DNA of 48,766 nucleotides from an uncultured archaeon (GCA_902384455.1 CABMCB010000039.1:1-48766), one strand, 5' to 3'. Shown: positions 5,751-15,928, counted from the first letter of the stretch. Made by a program: numbers and translations. The notes: a model not told the origin generated them from the letters alone.

Positions 5751-6509
5751 CTACTTACTCCTTTTGAGCGTGGTTAGGCTTTTGTATACGAATTCTGCGT
5801 CAACTGCGGGGTTCATTGCTATGCCGCGTTCTATTATGACTGCGGGCACGCCGCATGCTTTGGCTGTTTCTTCCACAACAAGCTGGTTTACTGTTTGGTG
5901 GCGGACGATGTTTTCTGTTGAGGGGTCGCGTTTTCTAAGTCCTGCTTCGTTGTCTTTGATTCTTTGTTTGCTGACTACTTCCGGGTTGTGGTTGAAAAGG
6001 AATATGGCGTCCGGATTAAGTATGTTGAAGACTGACGGCGGCACTCCGATAAGGTAGCCGTTTGGCGTCTCAACGGTCGCATGCGTGTCCACGCAGTAGA
6101 CCATTTTGTTCGTTCCTAAACGGCTCTTTTCTGCTATGGAGGATGCGGCTTTAAGCTGGATTTCTTTTTGCTGTTCGACTGAGAGTTTGGCTCTCATTTC
6201 GTCGCGGTGTTTTATGCCGTAATTTTTGCTTGCGACCTCGAACATTACGTCGCCGTAGTTGAGTATTTTGACTTCGTAGTCCTTGTGGGCTTCCTGAAAC
6301 ACCTTCATAACGTAGCTTTTGCCAACTCCCGGCACTCCGAATATGAGCAGCACAATGGGCGCTTTAGCCGGTTTAGGATTCCATTTGTAGTCACTAAGGC
6401 TTCCGTTGAATCCTTTGTAGTCTACAAGAGACGACTCAAGAGTAACTGCTTTCTGCGCGGCATTGCCGGCAACGCCCGTTGAATCCGAAACGTCCTTATT
6501 TGAGACCAT
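5751..6509 (-). CDS. adkA: Archaeal-type adenylate kinase (AdkA family) with about 50-aa N-terminal extension
   Basis: GVPGVGKS P-loop, NYGDVM, RDEMR, VDTHATVETPNGYLIGVP, LRKRD lid. Confidence 0.85.
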   Translation of the reverse strand: MVSNKDVSDSTGVAGNAAQKAVTLESSLVDYKGFNGSLSDYKWNPKPAKAPIVLLIFGVPGVGKSYVMKVFQEAHKDYEVKILNYGDVMFEVASKNYGIKHRDEMRAKLSVEQQKEIQLKAASSIAEKSRLGTNKMVYCVDTHATVETPNGYLIGVPPSVFNILNPDAIFLFNHNPEVVSKQRIKDNEAGLRKRDPSTENIVRHQTVNQLVVEETAKACGVPAVIIERGIAMNPAVDAEFVYKSLTTLKRSK

Positions 6510-6588
6510 TGTTCATCAGCCGATTATTTTAGGAAAATAAGGTGGTAAGGCAGGTTTATTAATCGCCCGAATTTAATGAATAACGTTT

Positions 6589-7491
6589 ATGGTAACTGCT
6601 TCTGCGCCCGAGGGAATAATACTAGCCGGCGAGCACGTTTACGGAAAAACAACACATTTAATCGCAGCAGCAATACAACACAGAACCCAGGCGACCGCCG
6701 AACCATTAGGCGGAGACATCATCCGTTTAATATGGCCTCCAAACGCTGAAGCGAGCGCCCGCATATTAAGCACGGTGCTTGTTGAGAAGAAGGGTCCGCC
6801 TGAGCTGACTAGCGTTCTTGACGTCGGCGGGCTTGCGGTGGGCGTATACGGGATACGGAAGGGATTCAGCGTGCGTTTGAAAGGCGAAAGCACTTTGAAC
6901 CAGCCCGGCAGGATTATTGCGTCTCAAGTCGCAGTTTTTTCAGCTGTCGCCAAACTAAACAACATAGACGCAAAGCCAGTTGACATGCCCCGCCTGATAT
7001 ACCCTATCGCCAGAAAGCAAGGCCCAATGTCAGACGCTTACATAGTCGCATCATCCCTAGGCGGCGTCCACCTGATAAACACGGAGTCTGCGGAATCCGT
7101 CACCACCCCTCAAACGCTGCTTGTTTACGCTGAGACGCCCTCGGATTCCACACCAAAAAAAGCACCCCCCGAATTAGAAGCACAGTTTAATTCAATCGTA
7201 GAAGAAACGGCGGAACCACTAAAGGCAGGAGACCAAAAACGACTAGGGAACGCATTAAGCGCCCACCAAAAACTCGCTGTAGAAAACGAGCTTATCCCCG
7301 CCTCATCAAGCGAACCCTGCCTAATCGCAGAACAAGCAGGAGCCTTTGGCGCAAAAGGAGGCGAAGGATACGTAATCGCAGCAGCCGGCCCAATGAAGGC
7401 GGAAGAGGTTGTTAAGGCGCTTTCTGAAAAAGGGTTTCCAGCGCACCTGGTTGAATTGGGCGCAATCGGAGTAACATTGAACGGGCCGTAA
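6589..7491 (+). CDS. Mevalonate kinase-like GHMP protein with degenerate catalytic motifs (probable pseudokinase)
   Basis: MVK-like termini (ASAPEGIILAGEH, AAAI, GAFGAKG), but the PGK lysine, the GxGLGSSAA loop and the SGxD aspartate are missing. Confidence 0.7.
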   Translation: MVTASAPEGIILAGEHVYGKTTHLIAAAIQHRTQATAEPLGGDIIRLIWPPNAEASARILSTVLVEKKGPPELTSVLDVGGLAVGVYGIRKGFSVRLKGESTLNQPGRIIASQVAVFSAVAKLNNIDAKPVDMPRLIYPIARKQGPMSDAYIVASSLGGVHLINTESAESVTTPQTLLVYAETPSDSTPKKAPPELEAQFNSIVEETAEPLKAGDQKRLGNALSAHQKLAVENELIPASSSEPCLIAEQAGAFGAKGGEGYVIAAAGPMKAEEVVKALSEKGFPAHLVELGAIGVTLNGP

Positions 7492-7493
7492 AA

Positions 7494-8432
7494 TCAGATT
7501 AGTTTGGCTGCTCCGCCTACGACGAAAATCCTGGACTTAAATCCTTCTTCATCAATTTTGCGCGAAACCGACTCTGCGTCGTCCTTCAGGCAGAAAACGT
7601 ACACTGCGCTGCCTCCTGCGACGTTCCAAAAGCAGTTCAACCCTTTTTTACGCCAGCTTTCGACAAGAGACGTCAAACCCTTCATCTGAGCAGTCCTCAC
7701 GGGAAAACCCAAGTCCTCCACTAAACCGTGGAAAGTGCGCGCCTCATCCTCCATCAAAGAAAACAAAGAAACTAAGTCACCGTCGGCTGCAGCCTCCTTA
7801 GCCCCTCTAACCTTCTCAGGAATTCTCTTAAGACGAAGCGGATACTTAGGGTGCTCCACGATGCGCTTATGCAAATCGTCAGCCGCCCTCCTCTCAGAAG
7901 GAAACTCCACAACAAAAGCCCTAACGTCCCTAAGCTCGCGCCTGTCCGCCAACAACTCCGCCTCCAAAGAGGCAGGGTCATAAGCCGAAAGACCTCCGTA
8001 CAAGCTGCGGTAAGCAGTCTCAGACCCACATGTGGCATAAGGAAGAAGCTCGTCCACACTCAACCCCAACGAGAGGAATCCGTTTAATGCCGTCGCAAGA
8101 GCAGCTGCCCCCGAGTCGGAACTACCCGTAGCAATCCCCTCGTTATGGGACTCAATACGTAATTCTCCCGTGAATTTCGCCTTCTTCTTCAGAAGCTCAA
8201 CGACAACTCCCATGTCCTCCCCCCGCCTACCCTCCGGCGGCTTGCCGTTAACCAAAAAACCCCCTTTCCCGCCTTCCAAAGGGGAAACCTCAGTCAAAGT
8301 CCTCACCTTCCCCGCCGCATCAGTCAAAGCCAAGCTGACGCTTGCGTGAAGCCCGATTCTCCTCTCGTAATCCCTGAATCCTTCAGCGAAAACGACCGGC
8401 AGCCCCGGGTAAGCGCAAGCTTTCAAAACCAC
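7494..8432 (-). CDS. Mevalonate 3-kinase homolog (diphosphomevalonate decarboxylase superfamily, Thermoplasma Ta1305-like)
   Basis: AYPxxxVV, LHxS, NEGIATGSSDSGAA, SETAYRSLYGGL, HxxIVxxxxYPxR, VAGGSAVYV and VGGA match Ta1305 as I recall it. The decarboxylase motifs NIALIKYWGK and DAGPN are absent. Confidence 0.78.
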   Translation of the reverse strand: MVLKACAYPGLPVVFAEGFRDYERRIGLHASVSLALTDAAGKVRTLTEVSPLEGGKGGFLVNGKPPEGRRGEDMGVVVELLKKKAKFTGELRIESHNEGIATGSSDSGAAALATALNGFLSLGLSVDELLPYATCGSETAYRSLYGGLSAYDPASLEAELLADRRELRDVRAFVVEFPSERRAADDLHKRIVEHPKYPLRLKRIPEKVRGAKEAAADGDLVSLFSLMEDEARTFHGLVEDLGFPVRTAQMKGLTSLVESWRKKGLNCFWNVAGGSAVYVFCLKDDAESVSRKIDEEGFKSRIFVVGGAAKLI

Positions 8433-8510
8433 AAGAAAACATTAATGCCTAACCAAAAAAACCCTCTAAATAGGGCATATAAACGCTGCCGTCAAAAATC
8501 TTACGCCCAA

Positions 8511-9500
8511 ATGGACGTAAAGAAACTTCTTTCAGAGAAAAAAGCGCCTGTGGAAGCAGTCATAGGCGAATACACAAGCAACCCAAATCCCAAAGTAAGG
8601 GAGATGCTCTCCCACCCCTTCAAAGCAGGCGGAAAAAGAGTCCGCCCAGCACTACTCCTACTATCCTGCGAAGCAGTAGGCGGAGACCCGCAAAAAGCCC
8701 TGCCAGCAGCCGCATCCGTCGAAATCCTGCACACATTCACCCTAGTCCACGACGACATAATGGACCACGACCTAACAAGAAGAGGCCAACAGACCGTCCA
8801 CGCCAGATGGGGCGAAGAAATGGGGATAGTCGTCGGCGACACACTATACAGCATAGCATTCAAGGCTCTGATGGACTGCCGCAAAAACGGCGTGCCAGAA
8901 AAAAACATCATAGAAGCATTCGAAGTATTCACGTGGGCCAGCATCAAACTGCATCAAGGCCAGATAATGGACATGCTCTTTGAGGAACGCCCCAACGTCA
9001 CAGTAGACGAATACCTCGACATGGTGGACAAAAAAACAGGCGCACTAATAGAAGCAAGCGTCCGAATCGGCTCGGCGATAGGCGGAGGAACAAAAGAACA
9101 GTCCGAAGCTCTCGGCATATTCGGAAGCAGGATAGGAACGGCATTCCAGATAAAAGACGACGTGCTGGGTCTCACGGCAGACGAGAGCGAACTCGGCAAA
9201 CCCGTGGGAAGCGACATACGCCGAGGCAAAAGAAACATCCTCATATCCCACGCATTAGCCCACGCCAAAGGAACACCACTTAGAACGCTCAAAGCAGCGC
9301 TCAAAAACGCCGACGCACCAGACGAGGAAATCAATGAGGCCATACAGATAATCAAGGACGCAGGAAGCTTCGCTTACGCCGAAAAACTGGAGAACAAACT
9401 ATACGAGGAGGCACTCGCCGCATTAAGGACGCTTCCGCCCTCATCGGCCAGAGACGGAATCGAGGCGATAGGAGACTTCATCATAAAAAGGAGCTATTAA
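8511..9500 (+). CDS. idsA: Geranylgeranyl diphosphate synthase (short-chain trans-prenyltransferase)
   Basis: GGKRVRP, FTLVHDDIMD (FARM with Phe at -5), RRG, GQIMD, KTGAL, FQIKDD, GKPVGSD. Start reassigned to ATG 8511, about 33 nt after TATAAA. Confidence 0.93.
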   Translation: MDVKKLLSEKKAPVEAVIGEYTSNPNPKVREMLSHPFKAGGKRVRPALLLLSCEAVGGDPQKALPAAASVEILHTFTLVHDDIMDHDLTRRGQQTVHARWGEEMGIVVGDTLYSIAFKALMDCRKNGVPEKNIIEAFEVFTWASIKLHQGQIMDMLFEERPNVTVDEYLDMVDKKTGALIEASVRIGSAIGGGTKEQSEALGIFGSRIGTAFQIKDDVLGLTADESELGKPVGSDIRRGKRNILISHALAHAKGTPLRTLKAALKNADAPDEEINEAIQIIKDAGSFAYAEKLENKLYEEALAALRTLPPSSARDGIEAIGDFIIKRSY

Positions 9501-9501
9501 G

Positions 9502-10497
9502 ATGACAATCGAAGAGCGCAAAAAAGACCACATACGAATCGCAGTCAAAAACGCGGTGGAAACAGGAAACCCCGGATTCGACAAACTCCGCCTCAAACAC
9601 AAAGTACTCCCGGAAGCAAACTACGACTCAGTCGACACATCCACCACATTCCTCAAACACAAACTCAAAGCTCCAATACTAATCTCCGGCATGACAGGAG
9701 GAACAAACGAAGCACGCCAAATAAACAAAGCCCTCGCCGCCGTAGCCCAAGAATACGGCATAGCATTCGGAGTAGGAAGCGAACGCGCAGCAATAGAAAA
9801 ACCAAAACTCGCACCCACATACCAAGTGCGCGACGTAGCCCCAGACATACTACTAATAGCAAACCTAGGCGCAGTACAACTCAACTACGGATACGGCACC
9901 AAAGAAATCCGCCAAGCAATAGAAATAATCCAGGCAGACGCCATAGCCCTACACGCAAACCCCATACAAGAATCAGTACAACCAGAAGGAGACAGAAACT
10001 TCAGCAACCTAACCGCAAAAATAAACGCCGCAGCCAAAGAACTCAAAGAACCCGTCCTATTCAAAGGTGTCGGCGAAGGCATAAGCAAAGAAGCAGCCCA
10101 AAAACTCAAAGTCGACGCATTCGACGTAGGCGGATGGGGCGGCACAAACTGGGGCCTAATCGAAGGATACCGCCAAGACGAAGCAACACTTGAACGCGGC
10201 CGCCTCTTCTCCAGTTGGGGCACAAGCACCGTGGACAGCATTTTGGCTGTGAGGGATTTGGGTGTGCCGGTAGTGGGAAGCGGAGGCGTCAGGACGGGTG
10301 TGGACGCGGCAAAGGCGTTGGCTTTGGGAGCTGATTTGGTGGGCTTAGCTCGCCCAATTCTTACCGCATATTTTTCCGGCGGGCAGAAGGAAGTTAAACT
10401 CTACATCAACCGGTTCATAGCGGAACTTAAGGTTTCGATGTTTTTGACTGGCGCAGAAAGCGTTAAAGGCCTTAGGGGCCGCGTTGATTTGGTTTGA
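9502..10497 (+). CDS. fni: Type 2 isopentenyl-diphosphate isomerase (FMN-dependent)
   Basis: RKKDH, MTGG, GVGSER, ANLGAVQL, NPIQESVQPEGDRNF, GGTNW, SGGVRTGVDAAKALALGA. Confidence 0.96.
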   Translation: MTIEERKKDHIRIAVKNAVETGNPGFDKLRLKHKVLPEANYDSVDTSTTFLKHKLKAPILISGMTGGTNEARQINKALAAVAQEYGIAFGVGSERAAIEKPKLAPTYQVRDVAPDILLIANLGAVQLNYGYGTKEIRQAIEIIQADAIALHANPIQESVQPEGDRNFSNLTAKINAAAKELKEPVLFKGVGEGISKEAAQKLKVDAFDVGGWGGTNWGLIEGYRQDEATLERGRLFSSWGTSTVDSILAVRDLGVPVVGSGGVRTGVDAAKALALGADLVGLARPILTAYFSGGQKEVKLYINRFIAELKVSMFLTGAESVKGLRGRVDLV

Positions 10498-11287: not shown

Positions 11288-14200
11288 TTATGGGAAAGCT
11301 TCGTCTTCATCGTAGCCGTACCATGGTGCATGCTGGCCTTTTTTGGGGGGCGAACTTTCTTTTCGCCCCTTTAAGTCTTCTTTTTCCGGAAGGGGCAGCG
11401 TTGCGGTCGCGGTCTTCTGCGGTTGTTCCGCGGTTGAAAGGTTAGTATTTTGTTGTTGAGCGTAAATTTGCGCGGACGCCGGAGTTGTTTGCGGGATTAA
11501 GGCGGTGGTTGCCGCGGGCGCATTAAGCGTCGGTTGCTGGGTCTCTGGCGTAGGTTGAGGTGTCTGCTGCGCCATGGACTCCTCAATTTGGCGCACCAAA
11601 GCAATGTTCTCCGGTTGGGAAGTGAATTTAGGTGTTGTTTCAGACTGATTTTGTTGCGCTTTAATCTGTGCGGGGGCGTCGGAAGGCGCAATTCTGCCCT
11701 CCACGGACGTCTGTTGTTGAGGTGCGGTTGACGCGGGTTTATCCGGCAATGCCGCAGGCGCAGCATGGGAGTGATTCCACGTAACTACGATGGGCGGCTG
11801 CTGGACGATGAACGCCGGCTGTTCCATACTCTGAGGTTGAGGTTGCGCTGCCGCAGGCACTTGAGGTTGCTGTATCACCACAGGGGTTTTTACTGCAGAA
11901 ACCGGAGGCATCTGCTTAGGACTTTGAGTAGGCGCTGCAGGTTGAGGCGGCGCAGTTTTTACCGCCTGAGGCGGCCTACCTGCGTAAGATTGTGTCCTAC
12001 TCGGAGTTACAGTAACCTTCGGCAAACCCTCCTTATCGGATTCTATCGCGGCCTTAGTGTCCATCCTAAATTCTGTCGCAGCTTTTTCCGCGTCCCTCCT
12101 CTCAAGCTGCCTAAAGTGCTCAAGCACCCTGTGCGTAGAATCCTCGCCTCCGCTGAAAATCCGCGATAAGAAACCTTTCTTACGCGAAACAGACGCAATA
12201 GGAGACGCGGCCGCAGGTTGCGCTGCCGCAGATAAAGTGGGCTGTTTGGTTGGGGCTGGCATGGCAGACGTCGTAATCGGCGACCTTTTGGTTTTCTCCG
12301 GCAAAATCTGCTCAGGCGCAGCCGGCTTGGACTGCGGGGATAGAGAGGGAACGGACGGTTCGGATTTTTTCAGTGCGGCCTTGGGTTCTATAGCGGGGGC
12401 GGTGGGCTTAGTTGCTTGTTGTTTGGTTGGCGGTGCAATTAGGTTGACGGGCGGAAGGGGTGCGGTTGGCGTAGGTTTCTGTTTTCTGTGCGGAAGTATC
12501 CTCGAAAGGAAGCTCTTCTTCACGTATGGCGGCGCGGCTTCTGCCGCAGGCAAAGTGGGTTGCGGCGAAACAACAGGCGATGCGACAATAGGAACTGTTG
12601 CAGGAGGCTGCTTTTTCACTTCCTCAGGCGGCTTAGGTGGCTTTGCTGCCGGAGGATTAACAGCGAGTTCAGGAGTCCTAAAAGCAGGCTTCACAGACTC
12701 AGGAGGCTTATTAGCGGCCGCCGGTTGAGGCGTGGCAGAAACCGGCTGTTGGCGAGGTTTTAATGTTGCGGCTGCTTTTTCTATGCTGCTTTTTTTGCGG
12801 GGGAATATGCGAGACAGCAACCCCCTCTTTTTCTCTACTGCGGATGCAGGCAGAACGTCAGGTTGTTTCTGATTAGTCGGAGTATAAGCGGCGGGCGGCT
12901 GAGTTTTGACTTCAACGGGGAGTGAAGGCGCTTTAACTTGAGGAGCTGTCTGCGGCATTTGAGGCGCAACCTTAATTGGTTCAGGTTTCACTGCCGCCTG
13001 CGCAGGGGGCTTTCTGATGTTTACTGGCTGCGGCGACGCAGCAACGGCCGGCTTATGCGAAGCCGAAGAAGGAACAACCGCAGCAGGCAAATCATGAACC
13101 TCCACAGCAGAATGCGCCTCATGCTTGTCTGCTGGATGCTTAGTCCTCTTAATCTTAACTTTAACGCCCGCAGTCGCCTTCCTCAAATCCTCCTGCATCC
13201 TAACGGCCCGGTAATAACGGCGGGCTCGAGTCATCAAACTCTCGCCCAAAGGCAAATAACCCTCCTGAAGATGCTGAAGGCCCAGCGGCGCTCCTGCGCG
13301 GGAAAGACCGAAGTAGAACGCCCAAGGTTTTCCGATACGCCGTTCCCTGCTCATCCACGCCCTCATTATGGCGCTTGAGCCTGCACGCTCCCCTTCAACA
13401 GCATACACCGGAACTTCTTCGCCTACGCCGGCGCTGCCGAAACTGAAGCGATGCCAAATCTTGCGCGCTCTTTGCACAAGAAGGAAAAAGACTAAGAACA
13501 CTACTGCAACGATTGCCACTGCGATCATGATAATCTGCTTTTCGCTGGATTCGTTCCCCACGGGCGCGCGAGAAATGGATTTGTTATAAATTGTCTCTGC
13601 CTCAGCGGCCAAATCAGGCTCGGACAAGTTAAGGAACATGTCTCGCGCCTTCAATGAAGAGTCTGCGGCGGTGCGGAAATCCGTAGCGGTAAAGTAAAGC
13701 CGCGCCTCATCCAAATCCTTGGTGGCTTGGCTGAACCCTTGCGCCCTGCTCCTTAGGTTGTCCATTTGGGCGGCTTCTGAAGTCATGCCTAATGACCTAT
13801 AGCTTTCAGCAGCCTGGCCCGCATAGTCTGAGGCGTCGTCATATTCCGTGTCGTCAAACGCCTCTTTCGCCTTCTTGGCTGCGAATCCGGCATTCACGCG
13901 GTTAAGGGTTAATCCGGCTTCCTCTGCTTCGGCGGTGAAATTGGTGTCCCGGTACCCCTTCTCCACGTTCCTAAGCGTCTGTATCAGCCCGTCAGTGAGG
14001 TTGCCGTCTTTTATGTACTGCTTTGCGATCGAGTAGCTTGCTTCAATAGTGGACCTGCGGGCGATTCTGTCCAAGAACATCTGAACGTTGAACACTCCCT
14101 CAGTATCCTTGATTTTAGCGTACCTGTTAAGCGCTTCCCTCGCGTACATACTGGAGTTCTCTATGTCTCCCTCGCCCAGATAGAAGTCTGCCTCCATCAG

Positions 14201-15928
14201 GTAAGTGTCTCCTTCTATCTGTGTGAGCAGGTTTTGCGCCTTATCCACGTCCTCTACTCTGCCTATTGAGGCGTAAATGAAGCTGGCGTTCGAAAGCAAG
14301 TCCGAAGACAGGCGGTAATTGCCGCTAAGGTAGGCGGATCTGGCGTCAGCCATCATGCCGTCCGCCACAATCCGGTTCCTGAAATCCTGAATTAAATAAG
14401 ACCCCTTCCTGTAGTTCGCATCCTTGAACGTAGTCTCCGCATCATTAAGAAGGGCCGCAACGTCAGCAACCGTGCCATTCTCGTACAACCGCAAGGCCTT
14501 CATGTACGAAGAGAAGCCTCTGCGGCGCAAAACGGCCCACTGGTACTCAAAGACGTACAGTCCTCCGTCAGTAGAGGCGGTAACTATCTCCGCTGTTTCA
14601 TCGCCCTCAATGTCCGCAAACACCGGGTCAGATTTCCCCTGCCCCCCAAGGTCATAAGTCCAAAGAGTGTACGCCGTCGAATTAATAAGGTACAGGATGC
14701 CGTTGTCGTTGGTAAAAAGAATCTCCAGACTCCCGTCATGGTTGATGTCGGCCAAAGCCGGCGAAGTGCTGATAGGCCTGCTGGTAGTGTACCTGTAGCG
14801 AATCCCCCCGCTGGAAGCATTGATTATATACAGGCTTTTGTCTTTGCTGCCAACAATAACCTCCTCCCATCCGTCATTGTCAATGTCCGCCACGGCCGCA
14901 GAACCATATATTTCGCCCATGGAGACGTTCCATATTTGGCCCAGTCCGGTCATGGTTATGCTTTCTCTTCTGCAGCCTGTGGCGTCGCACACTCGCCTGT
15001 TGCCCGCCGACCCCAAGTCAGTTTTGTAGAGGGCAAATAGCCGGTCGTTCATAGAGCCGATATACACTATGTTGCCCGTCATCGCCGGCGTGGCGTGGAC
15101 GCCGCCCAGAATGTTGTACGACCAAATCCGGTAAGGCGGCGTGCTTAAGATGTACAGAAGAGTGTCCATGCCGCCGACAGTAATATCGTTCTTTCCGTCG
15201 TTGTCAAAATCTATCACAGCAGGAGACGACTCTATAGCATCCTGCGTCTGATACTTCCAAATCAGTTTGCCCAAATAATCGAACGCATACACGTAATGGT
15301 CCTCGCTCCCGATGACAATCTCATACTCCGGAGTCTCATCAAGATTTTGGATAAGCGGAGAAGAAACAATGTTCCCCCCAGTCTGATAAGACCACTCAAC
15401 AGAACCATTCCTACCGTCAATAGCATAAACCCTCCCATCCTCAGAACCAACAACCACAGTAGACCAACCAACGTCAGTAAAATTCCACACCGCAGGAGAA
15501 CTCCTAACGCGGCCTTGAGTCTGAGTCTTCCAAAGAAGGATGCCGTCGGAATCATAGGCGTAGACGAATCCGTCGTCGCATCCAACCACAACGTCAAGGG
15601 CTCCGTCACCGTTTAAGTCCACCACAGCAGGCGAAGAATAAACAGGTCCCCCCAGTTGCCTCCTCCATAATAGCGTATAGTTCCGCGGGTCAATGTCTGA
15701 AATCAAGGGCCTAAGGTATCCTGTCCTCCCGGCGTCATGACGGTACATGGGCCAAGAGGCGGTTAAAATTCTTTCATTAGTGTCGTTTTCACTAGTCTGA
15801 GCAGCGCAATTCAAAGACAAAGAAACGATTAGTGCGATTATTGAGGCAAAGGCTGCTTTATCGCGTAACCTACCATAAATCCGCCCTATTTGCCCCCTTC
15901 TCAAGAAGGGCTGCCGTAAAAGCTTCAT
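11288..15928 (-). CDS. Large single-pass membrane protein: signal peptide, PQQ-like/FG-GAP beta-propeller, TPR-like helical region, TM, long Pro/Ala/Gln-rich tail
   Basis: WPMYRHDAGRTG start; repeated SSPAVxDxNxDGxxEIVxGSxD; helical repeats; TM IIMIAVAIVAVVFLVFFLLV; about 600 aa of low-complexity C-terminus. Confidence 0.85.
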   Translation of the reverse strand: MKLLRQPFLRRGQIGRIYGRLRDKAAFASIIALIVSLSLNCAAQTSENDTNERILTASWPMYRHDAGRTGYLRPLISDIDPRNYTLLWRRQLGGPVYSSPAVVDLNGDGALDVVVGCDDGFVYAYDSDGILLWKTQTQGRVRSSPAVWNFTDVGWSTVVVGSEDGRVYAIDGRNGSVEWSYQTGGNIVSSPLIQNLDETPEYEIVIGSEDHYVYAFDYLGKLIWKYQTQDAIESSPAVIDFDNDGKNDITVGGMDTLLYILSTPPYRIWSYNILGGVHATPAMTGNIVYIGSMNDRLFALYKTDLGSAGNRRVCDATGCRRESITMTGLGQIWNVSMGEIYGSAAVADIDNDGWEEVIVGSKDKSLYIINASSGGIRYRYTTSRPISTSPALADINHDGSLEILFTNDNGILYLINSTAYTLWTYDLGGQGKSDPVFADIEGDETAEIVTASTDGGLYVFEYQWAVLRRRGFSSYMKALRLYENGTVADVAALLNDAETTFKDANYRKGSYLIQDFRNRIVADGMMADARSAYLSGNYRLSSDLLSNASFIYASIGRVEDVDKAQNLLTQIEGDTYLMEADFYLGEGDIENSSMYAREALNRYAKIKDTEGVFNVQMFLDRIARRSTIEASYSIAKQYIKDGNLTDGLIQTLRNVEKGYRDTNFTAEAEEAGLTLNRVNAGFAAKKAKEAFDDTEYDDASDYAGQAAESYRSLGMTSEAAQMDNLRSRAQGFSQATKDLDEARLYFTATDFRTAADSSLKARDMFLNLSEPDLAAEAETIYNKSISRAPVGNESSEKQIIMIAVAIVAVVFLVFFLLVQRARKIWHRFSFGSAGVGEEVPVYAVEGERAGSSAIMRAWMSRERRIGKPWAFYFGLSRAGAPLGLQHLQEGYLPLGESLMTRARRYYRAVRMQEDLRKATAGVKVKIKRTKHPADKHEAHSAVEVHDLPAAVVPSSASHKPAVAASPQPVNIRKPPAQAAVKPEPIKVAPQMPQTAPQVKAPSLPVEVKTQPPAAYTPTNQKQPDVLPASAVEKKRGLLSRIFPRKKSSIEKAAATLKPRQQPVSATPQPAAANKPPESVKPAFRTPELAVNPPAAKPPKPPEEVKKQPPATVPIVASPVVSPQPTLPAAEAAPPYVKKSFLSRILPHRKQKPTPTAPLPPVNLIAPPTKQQATKPTAPAIEPKAALKKSEPSVPSLSPQSKPAAPEQILPEKTKRSPITTSAMPAPTKQPTLSAAAQPAAASPIASVSRKKGFLSRIFSGGEDSTHRVLEHFRQLERRDAEKAATEFRMDTKAAIESDKEGLPKVTVTPSRTQSYAGRPPQAVKTAPPQPAAPTQSPKQMPPVSAVKTPVVIQQPQVPAAAQPQPQSMEQPAFIVQQPPIVVTWNHSHAAPAALPDKPASTAPQQQTSVEGRIAPSDAPAQIKAQQNQSETTPKFTSQPENIALVRQIEESMAQQTPQPTPETQQPTLNAPAATTALIPQTTPASAQIYAQQQNTNLSTAEQPQKTATATLPLPEKEDLKGRKESSPPKKGQHAPWYGYDEDEAFP

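Follow-up and report, generated by a model that had tools for sequence, protein, structure and literature searches.

An orphan mevalonate 3-kinase-family enzyme in an Altiarchaeota archaeon that encodes the classical mevalonate route

Introduction

A gene whose product has the fold of mevalonate diphosphate decarboxylases (MDD fold), and in which the residues of the decarboxylases are replaced, raises the question of which step of mevalonate metabolism it might serve in an archaeon outside the Thermoplasmatales. Such a gene lies in the window analyzed here, i.e. the whole stretch of 48,766 nucleotides that makes up contig C39 of an archaeal genome assembly (2.41 Mb in 103 contigs, 91.9% complete, 0.9% contamination). 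The reference enzyme is the mevalonate 3-kinase (M3K; EC 2.7.1.185) Ta1305 of T. acidophilum, known from the structures 4rkp, 4rks and 4rkz, in which the Glu of the SESAGRS motif sets the preference for unphosphorylated mevalonate. The occurrence of M3K has been explained as half of a split decarboxylase, related to isoprenoid formation at low pH in extreme acidophiles (PMC5177888), and M3K together with MBD (bisphosphomevalonate decarboxylase) has been described as restricted to Thermoplasmata and a few Micrarchaeota (PMC6107057). Homologues of M3K, M3P5K (mevalonate-3-phosphate 5-kinase) and MBD were reported in DPANN in 2024, with Altiarchaeota being named (PMC11052028).

A first-pass annotation of the window regarded the gene as an unreported occurrence or variant of the Thermoplasma-type pathway. 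Below we analyze the protein family, the mevalonate pathway of the host, and the distribution and gene order of the kinase among Altiarchaeota.

Results and discussion

Motifs and conservation of the window protein

The kinase gene and its neighbours are compiled in Table 1.

Table 1. Features around the kinase gene in the window; coordinates are counted from the first nucleotide of the stretch.
Feature	Position	Strand	Evidence or remark
Archaeal-type adenylate kinase homologue, ~50-aa N-terminal extension	5751..6509	-	155.2 bits, family cut-off 155
Degenerate mevalonate-kinase-like ORF, 300 aa	6589..7491	+	PRK03926 E 2.9e-9, end-to-end alignment
M3K-family kinase, Altiarchaeota clade, 312 aa	7494..8432	-	GTG start (codon at 8432), unbroken ORF, profiles, tree, model
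A+T-rich divergent spacer, 78 bp, ATATAAA stretch	8433..8510	.	between kinase and prenyl synthase
Short-chain (geranylgeranyl-type) prenyl diphosphate synthase	8511..9500	+	Pfam polyprenyl_synt E 2.7e-73
Type 2 isopentenyl-diphosphate isomerase (IDI2)	9502..10497	+	TIGR02151 372 bits, cut-off 281

Three motifs distinguish the window protein from the decarboxylases. The segment VVFAEGF (residues 13-19, with FAEGF at 15-19) aligns with the slot that holds KYWGK in decarboxylases, SETAYRS (residues 137-143) corresponds to SGSAxRS of the decarboxylases and SESAGRS of Ta1305, and NVAGGSAV (residues 270-277) corresponds to DAGPN of the decarboxylases and VTGGSN of Ta1305. Alignment with Ta1305 and the MDD-fold proteins puts Ala272 at the position of the catalytic Asp of the decarboxylases. 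The sequence alignment with 4rkp places SETAYRS over SESAGRS and NVAGGSAVYV over IVTGGSNVYV, where decarboxylases read DAGPNVKV. The ATP loop GSSDSGAAA covers residues 103-111.

The diagnostic value of these positions was evaluated by aligning 207 distinct MDD-fold proteins, comprising the clade of the window protein, the named loci, library representatives of 270-400 aa and anchors, from which fragments and fusions were excluded. Glu is found at the SE site in 97 of these proteins; in this group the Asp site is occupied by Ala (56), Thr (28), Gly (12) or Ser (1) but never by Asp, and the first Lys of KYWGK is absent throughout. The catalytic Asp is present in 96 proteins, none of which has the SE-site Glu and 92 of which have the KYWGK Lys, while 14 rows belong to neither class. 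Given this split, the motifs pointed out in the first-pass annotation are real and diagnostic. Within the clade of the window protein, GSSDSGAAA, S137, E138, R142 and S143 are identical in all 36 members, and of the 72 columns conserved to at least 90% among the other 35, the window protein retains 67; its five departures (S27G, V234F, F238V, L293I, A306G) are all conservative. Judged by these residues, the catalytic signature of the kinase is intact.

Work on characterised enzymes helps to interpret the replacements. The SeMVD positions 17-21, 72, 139-141, 192-196 and 283 are involved in diphosphate binding or catalysis (PMC4357925), and FAEGF of the window kinase is the equivalent of SeMVD 17-21 with an acidic residue added. 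Whereas diphosphomevalonate decarboxylase (DMD), phosphomevalonate decarboxylase (PMD) and MBD conserve the catalytic Asp, M3K does not, and exchange of this Asp for Thr or Val turns a DMD into a 3-kinase without decarboxylation (PMC9254496).

Assignment to the M3K family

Profile searches assign the protein to the M3K family. It matches Pfam MVD-like_N (PF22700; E 1.9e-17, 63.8 bits, cut-off 27) and M3K_C (PF21433; E 7e-16, 59 bits, gathering score 27). Among the NCBIfam models, mevalonate-3-kinase ranks first with 135.4 bits, followed by PMD (86) and DMD (58), all of them far under the equivalog cut-offs. The cut-off of the M3K model NF040848, 440 bits, is reached neither by the window protein nor in any of 61 Altiarchaeota genomes; this model appears to be tuned to Thermoplasmatales. 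A protein search returned 38 proteins including the query, with identities of 38-48% and PF21433 in all of them, seven of which are named Altiarchaeota/Altiarchaeales and one Micrarchaeia (NCBI). The clade profile run against 1.84 billion representatives detected 44 clusters at E<=1e-30, 629 at <=1e-10 and 1611 at <=1e-3.

The closest solved structure by sequence is Ta1305 (4rkp, E 8.3e-25). An AlphaFold model of the kinase, confident throughout (mean pLDDT 95.7), also has its best structural matches in Ta1305 (4rkz/4rkp, TM 0.88-0.90), with decarboxylase structures being almost as near (see below). For the phylogeny, the 207 rows were thinned at 62% identity and rows shorter than 300 aa were dropped. 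The 57 M3K-type rows that remained were combined with 28 decarboxylases, namely 6 anchors plus the first 22 representatives. A quick tree of these 85 rows separated M3K-type proteins from decarboxylases with an SH-aLRT of 99. A careful tree was built from a 58-row subset, with support given as bootstrap/SH-aLRT and the root placed on the decarboxylases, not inferred; here the same split received 100/100. The window protein falls into an Altiarchaeota clade of 16 rows (100/99), sister to a seven-row DPANN group (97/82), and the 12-row Thermoplasmatales clade is separate (100/99). Its end branch is long (0.85), within the range of the other 15 clade rows (0.26-0.86). The window protein is thus an M3K-family, MDD-fold kinase of an Altiarchaeota-specific clade. 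The placement proposed in the first-pass annotation, with M3Ks and not with decarboxylases, is borne out by the tree, by the M3K_C domain and Ta1305 as top match, and by the missing Asp.

With Ta1305 the window protein has in common the fold, the shortened ATP loop GSSDSGAAA, the Ser-Glu motif, the lack of both the catalytic Asp and the KYWGK lysines, and the same side of the main split in the tree. However, the two share only 26-27% identity, fall into separate clades, and differ at the Asp site (Ala versus Thr in Ta1305), in FAEG, which replaces LLGG, and in the Tyr of SETAYRS; moreover, the window protein is without the three-residue insert that Ta1305 carries before the loop. Since Glu17 (in FAEG), Thr139 and Tyr141 differ from the characterised enzymes, the substrate may differ as well. 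It could be mevalonate 5-phosphate, mevalonate 5-diphosphate or another 3-hydroxy acid, for example 3-hydroxyisovalerate. Such a reading is consistent with the pocket, which compared to Thermoplasmatales M3K has FAEG for LLGG, SETAYRS for SESVGRS and no insert of three residues before the VxGG loop, and it has precedents in the M3K of Picrophilus, which also phosphorylates 3-hydroxyisovalerate (PMC4357925), and in the DMD mutant acting as mevalonate 5-diphosphate 3-kinase (PMC9254496). However, the KYWGK segment, which binds the diphosphate, has its Lys and Tyr replaced by Phe, Ala, Glu and Phe/Tyr, and the SE[ST] motif shows no variation at its Glu, hence a phosphorylated 5-position is disfavoured. 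Furthermore, the neighbouring genes are all related to mevalonate or isoprenoids. A substrate other than free mevalonate is thus rather unlikely in our view.

The host and its mevalonate pathway

Judged by its relatives and by the neighbouring genes in the window, the host is an Altiarchaeota archaeon and not a member of the Thermoplasmatales, in line with the first-pass annotation. Species-representative genomes contained 49 M3K-like loci, which by title belong to Altiarchaeota/Altiarchaeales (15), 'uncultured archaeon' (8), Micrarchaeota/Micrarchaeia (7) and Thermoplasmata with relatives (19). One of them, locus L026 of Candidatus Altiarchaeales Bin_400, matches coordinates in genome G050 from the host's own family; Bin_400 is placed in order IMC4, family SCGC-AAA252-I15, in the supplementary table of PMC11052028. 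One DNA run contained a 0.08 share of the sampled sequence words, and no RNA run was listed.

The host genome encodes HMG-CoA synthase and HMG-CoA reductase as well as mevalonate kinase (C84, 652-1578; TIGR00549, 230 bits, cut-off 163), phosphomevalonate kinase (PMK; C88, 65-1060; 161 bits against a cut-off of 165.7, the gene being truncated by the contig end) and a classical DMD (C81:13473-14471; 339 bits, cut-off 171) with KYWGK, GSGSASRS and DAGPN. The enzymes that would accompany an M3K in the Thermoplasma-type pathway were searched for in the same genome. The M3P5K model (Ta0762 type, NF008996) gave a best match of E 0.29 and 11 bits, and tblastn with a DPANN M3P5K-like protein a best E of 0.58. 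MBD (NF040847) was not detected, the only MDD-fold genes of the genome being the window kinase and the classical DMD. The search for isopentenyl phosphate kinase (IPK) returned ArgB, the acetylglutamate kinase, as top match (47 bits, cut-off 120), and neither AcnX nor UbiD was found. Hence, regarding this 92%-complete genome, the Thermoplasma-type route is not encoded and the classical route is. The window kinase is not the entry point of the Thermoplasma-type pathway, and the corresponding part of the first-pass annotation has to be given up. It might be possible that partner genes sit on unassembled DNA, in which case the assembly would have had to miss each of the three.

Contamination was considered as source of the classical genes and rejected, because the G+C content (0.51-0.52) and the tetranucleotide composition of C81, C84 and C88 do not stand out from those of other contigs of comparable size. 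Compared with the kinase-adjacent mevalonate kinases of other Altiarchaeota, the C84 enzyme shows 40-59% identity. The C81 decarboxylase shows only 41-43% identity to the DMDs of the other DMD-bearing Altiarchaeota family and is therefore not a carry-over from that family.

The classical DMD is also instructive regarding the chemistry. The host enzyme and the solved structures 4du7, 6e2u and 5gmd have the GHMP/MDD fold in common with the window protein (TM 0.85-0.90), and the first half-reaction of DMD, the ATP-dependent phosphorylation of the 3-hydroxyl, is the one predicted for the window protein. However, DMD carries KYWGK, SGSASRS and DAGPN, and the window protein has none of the three. 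In the Saccharolobus DMD mutant Asp281Thr/Val, a mevalonate 5-diphosphate 3-kinase, the loss of the Asp likewise ends decarboxylation (PMC9254496), but this mutant retains the diphosphate-binding residues that are lost in the window protein.

Distribution among Altiarchaeota

The distribution of the gene was analyzed in 61 Altiarchaeota genomes including that of the host; these genomes are mutually related and many are incomplete, so that the following counts describe a pattern and are no statistical test. Matches to the M3K-like gene (E<=1e-15) occurred in 24 genomes, 23 of them true and one being a DMD. The holders are the host, 19 of the 20 other genomes of its family, and all members of two more families (1/1 and 2/2), while the gene was found in none of the 22 and 8 genomes of the two other large families. 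MBD above the cut-off was detected in none of the 61 genomes, cross-matches being DMDs only. Matches to the M3P5K model (E<=1e-5) were obtained in 11 genomes, none of them near the cut-off, and only three of the 23 kinase holders were among these. AcnX is encoded in 52 genomes (19 of the 20 others in the host's family) and IPK above the cut-off in 47 (16 of these 20). Classical DMD above the cut-off is confined to five genomes, namely the host and all four members of one other family, and the other 20 genomes of the host's family have no MDD-fold decarboxylase. Within this family of 21 genomes, PMK/DMD instead of AcnX/IPK is thus seen only in the window's genome, where the lower mevalonate pathway seems to have been replaced. 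The kinase is retained whichever lower pathway is present, AcnX/IPK in the relatives or PMK/DMD in the window's genome.

The occurrence of M3K in Altiarchaeota is not new, contrary to what the first-pass annotation had assumed. Table S3 of PMC11052028 already lists M3K = 1, M3P5K = 0 and MBD = 0 for two of four Altiarchaeota MAGs, one with PMK and DMD and the other with AcnX, AMPD and IPK; the text of the paper states that such MAGs also have PMK and DMD. It is the one paper that our literature search found on M3K in Altiarchaeota, and its parts dealing with these genes give neither an assay nor a role. No paper was found that assays an Altiarchaeota M3K homologue or treats its operon with mevalonate kinase or its orphan state.

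Gene order around the kinase

In the window, the starts of the kinase (8432) and of the prenyl synthase (8511) face each other across the spacer. The first-pass annotation had described this as a divergent promoter region shared with genes for geranylgeranyl diphosphate synthase (GGPPS) and IDI2; spacer and adjacency stand, and the promoter role is putative. The prenyl synthase scores 329 bits with IdsA_Meth and 316 bits with GGPP_syn, both below the cut-offs, and its ATG at 8511 is residue 56 of a longer ORF, at the point where the IdsA model begins. The start of IDI2 lies two bases past the stop of the prenyl synthase. Further along the window, on the minus strand, 11288-15928 encodes a protein of 1546 aa; it has a signal-like segment at the N-terminus, a beta-propeller-like part rich in repeats and a long tail rich in Pro, Gln and Ala.

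Gene order was compared over 22 Altiarchaeota-type loci. In 11 of them the M3K-like gene is followed immediately, on the same strand, by mevalonate kinase (11 of the 19 loci with at least 1.3 kb of downstream sequence), and three further loci have mevalonate kinase within 6 kb; the eight loci without it include three with less than 100 bases downstream and three with about 1.3 kb. A HAD-family phosphatase is encoded upstream on the opposite strand in 17 loci and is directly adjacent in most of these; the one of L026 (5285-5980, minus strand) scores 130 bits with the beta-phosphoglucomutase-family model, which is below the cut-off. No close match to this phosphatase exists in the window's genome (best identity 30%), and the spacer in the window is without the HAD phosphatase and CBS gene. 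Beyond this position on the upstream side, 13 of the 22 loci encode GGPPS and 11 encode IDI2, and the AcnX large subunit is found downstream in eight. An M3P5K-like kinase occurs in none of the 22.

The last point separates the Altiarchaeota from the DPANN archaea. The M3K-like proteins of Micrarchaeota and others (loci L032, L036, L037, L039-L042 and L049) belong to the same family as the window protein, but have Gly at the Asp site, and an M3P5K-like P-loop kinase gene lies within about 2 kb in seven of these eight loci. The kinase of L036, which scores 128 bits on the M3P5K model, could be M3P5K or an analogue of phosphomevalonate kinase. At this locus (5989-10221) the order is M3K-like gene, M3P5K-like P-loop kinase, classical-type decarboxylase (TIGR01240, 259 bits), an ORF of 157 aa and mevalonate kinase; IDI2 is located near this array.

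The adenylate kinase homologue of the window was considered as a stand-in for M3P5K and rejected. It scores as an archaeal adenylate kinase, above the host's paralogue C90:9563-10276 (155 versus 128 bits; the two are 40% identical), and only one related locus has a homologue in the vicinity of the kinase.

The mevalonate-kinase-like ORF next to the kinase is intact and convergent on it, but it no longer has the GHMP phosphate loop or the GK-motif Lys, and no relatives were found among 5.8 billion clusters. In related genomes a true mevalonate kinase takes its place, but on the kinase's own strand. This plainly degenerate neighbour may invite the view that the M3K-like protein itself is a catalytically inactive relic or a pseudo-enzyme with a regulatory function that was left behind when the lower mevalonate pathway of the lineage changed; the pathway swap within the family, restricted to the window's genome, and the long end branch point in the same direction. 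However, neither the ATP loop nor the substrate motif is damaged, nearly all conserved columns are retained, the ORF is unbroken and the structure model is confident over the whole length, making a relic very improbable.

The gene order also allows a working hybrid route, which would amount to a new form of the Thermoplasma-type pathway. The kinase would produce mevalonate 3-phosphate, the canonical mevalonate kinase would add the 5-phosphate, and a resident enzyme would eliminate phosphate and decarboxylate, namely the classical decarboxylase after phosphomevalonate kinase in the window's genome and another enzyme in the relatives. The frequent position of mevalonate kinase behind the kinase or within 6 kb of it, the location of the kinase gene within an isoprenoid cluster with GGPPS and IDI2, and its retention in 19 of 20 sister genomes are consistent with such a route. 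In addition, a phosphomevalonate decarboxylase is reported to lose the kinase step but to retain decarboxylase activity at low pH, hence the second half-reaction can run alone (PMC5177888). However, the ATP cost would equal that of the classical route without evident gain, the 20 other genomes of the family have no MDD-fold decarboxylase to complete it, the window's genome lacks IPK, and the acceptance of mevalonate 3-phosphate by mevalonate kinase is purely assumed. On balance, we regard the hybrid route as unlikely.

A probable side branch of mevalonate metabolism

Family membership, the intact catalytic signature, the absence of partner genes, the conservation and the gene order are established for this orphan M3K-type enzyme, whereas we infer its substrate, its product and any physiological role. 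The explanation that we favour as the probable one is an active ATP-dependent M3K-family kinase that would phosphorylate the 3-hydroxyl of free mevalonate without decarboxylation and form a side branch. A 3-kinase for unphosphorylated mevalonate is predicted because of Ala at the Asp site and FAEGF with its added acidic residue. Decarboxylation is not expected, because the Asp that all decarboxylating homologues need is missing, and free mevalonate would be the substrate because the basic residues holding a 5-phosphate or 5-diphosphate are absent. Accepting these predictions, the enzyme would move a phosphate from ATP onto the 3-hydroxyl of (R)-mevalonate and then stop. Isopentenyl diphosphate is made by the host via mevalonate kinase, phosphomevalonate kinase and the classical DMD, and the 3-kinase would represent an extra, conserved side branch, the product of which has no known onward enzyme in the host.

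Several points weigh against this side branch. A product without a consumer would be metabolically odd, and the strong conservation of the kinase and the operon that it usually forms with mevalonate kinase hint at a productive function, which the side branch does not account for. The low identity to Ta1305 and the 135 bits compared to a cut-off of 440 also count against it. It is worth mentioning a more speculative and doubtful, yet conceivable idea, according to which one Altiarchaeota family uses mevalonate 3-phosphorylation outside the Thermoplasma route. In a first form, the 3-kinase together with the co-transcribed mevalonate kinase may supply mevalonate 3,5-bisphosphate to an eliminating enzyme, which would constitute a fifth, hybrid branch. 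In a second form, the kinase and the divergently encoded HAD phosphatase may act as a switch that parks mevalonate as 3-phosphate and thereby controls the flux into lipids.

Conclusion

The Altiarchaeota harbour a well-conserved branch of the M3K family in non-Thermoplasmatales archaea that have mevalonate kinase and a complete other route but lack both partner enzymes. Therefore, either the M3K family serves a second purpose or 3-phosphomevalonate itself fulfils some role. This also bears on evolutionary schemes that take every M3K homologue as evidence for the Thermoplasma-type pathway, as is done in the text of PMC11052028.
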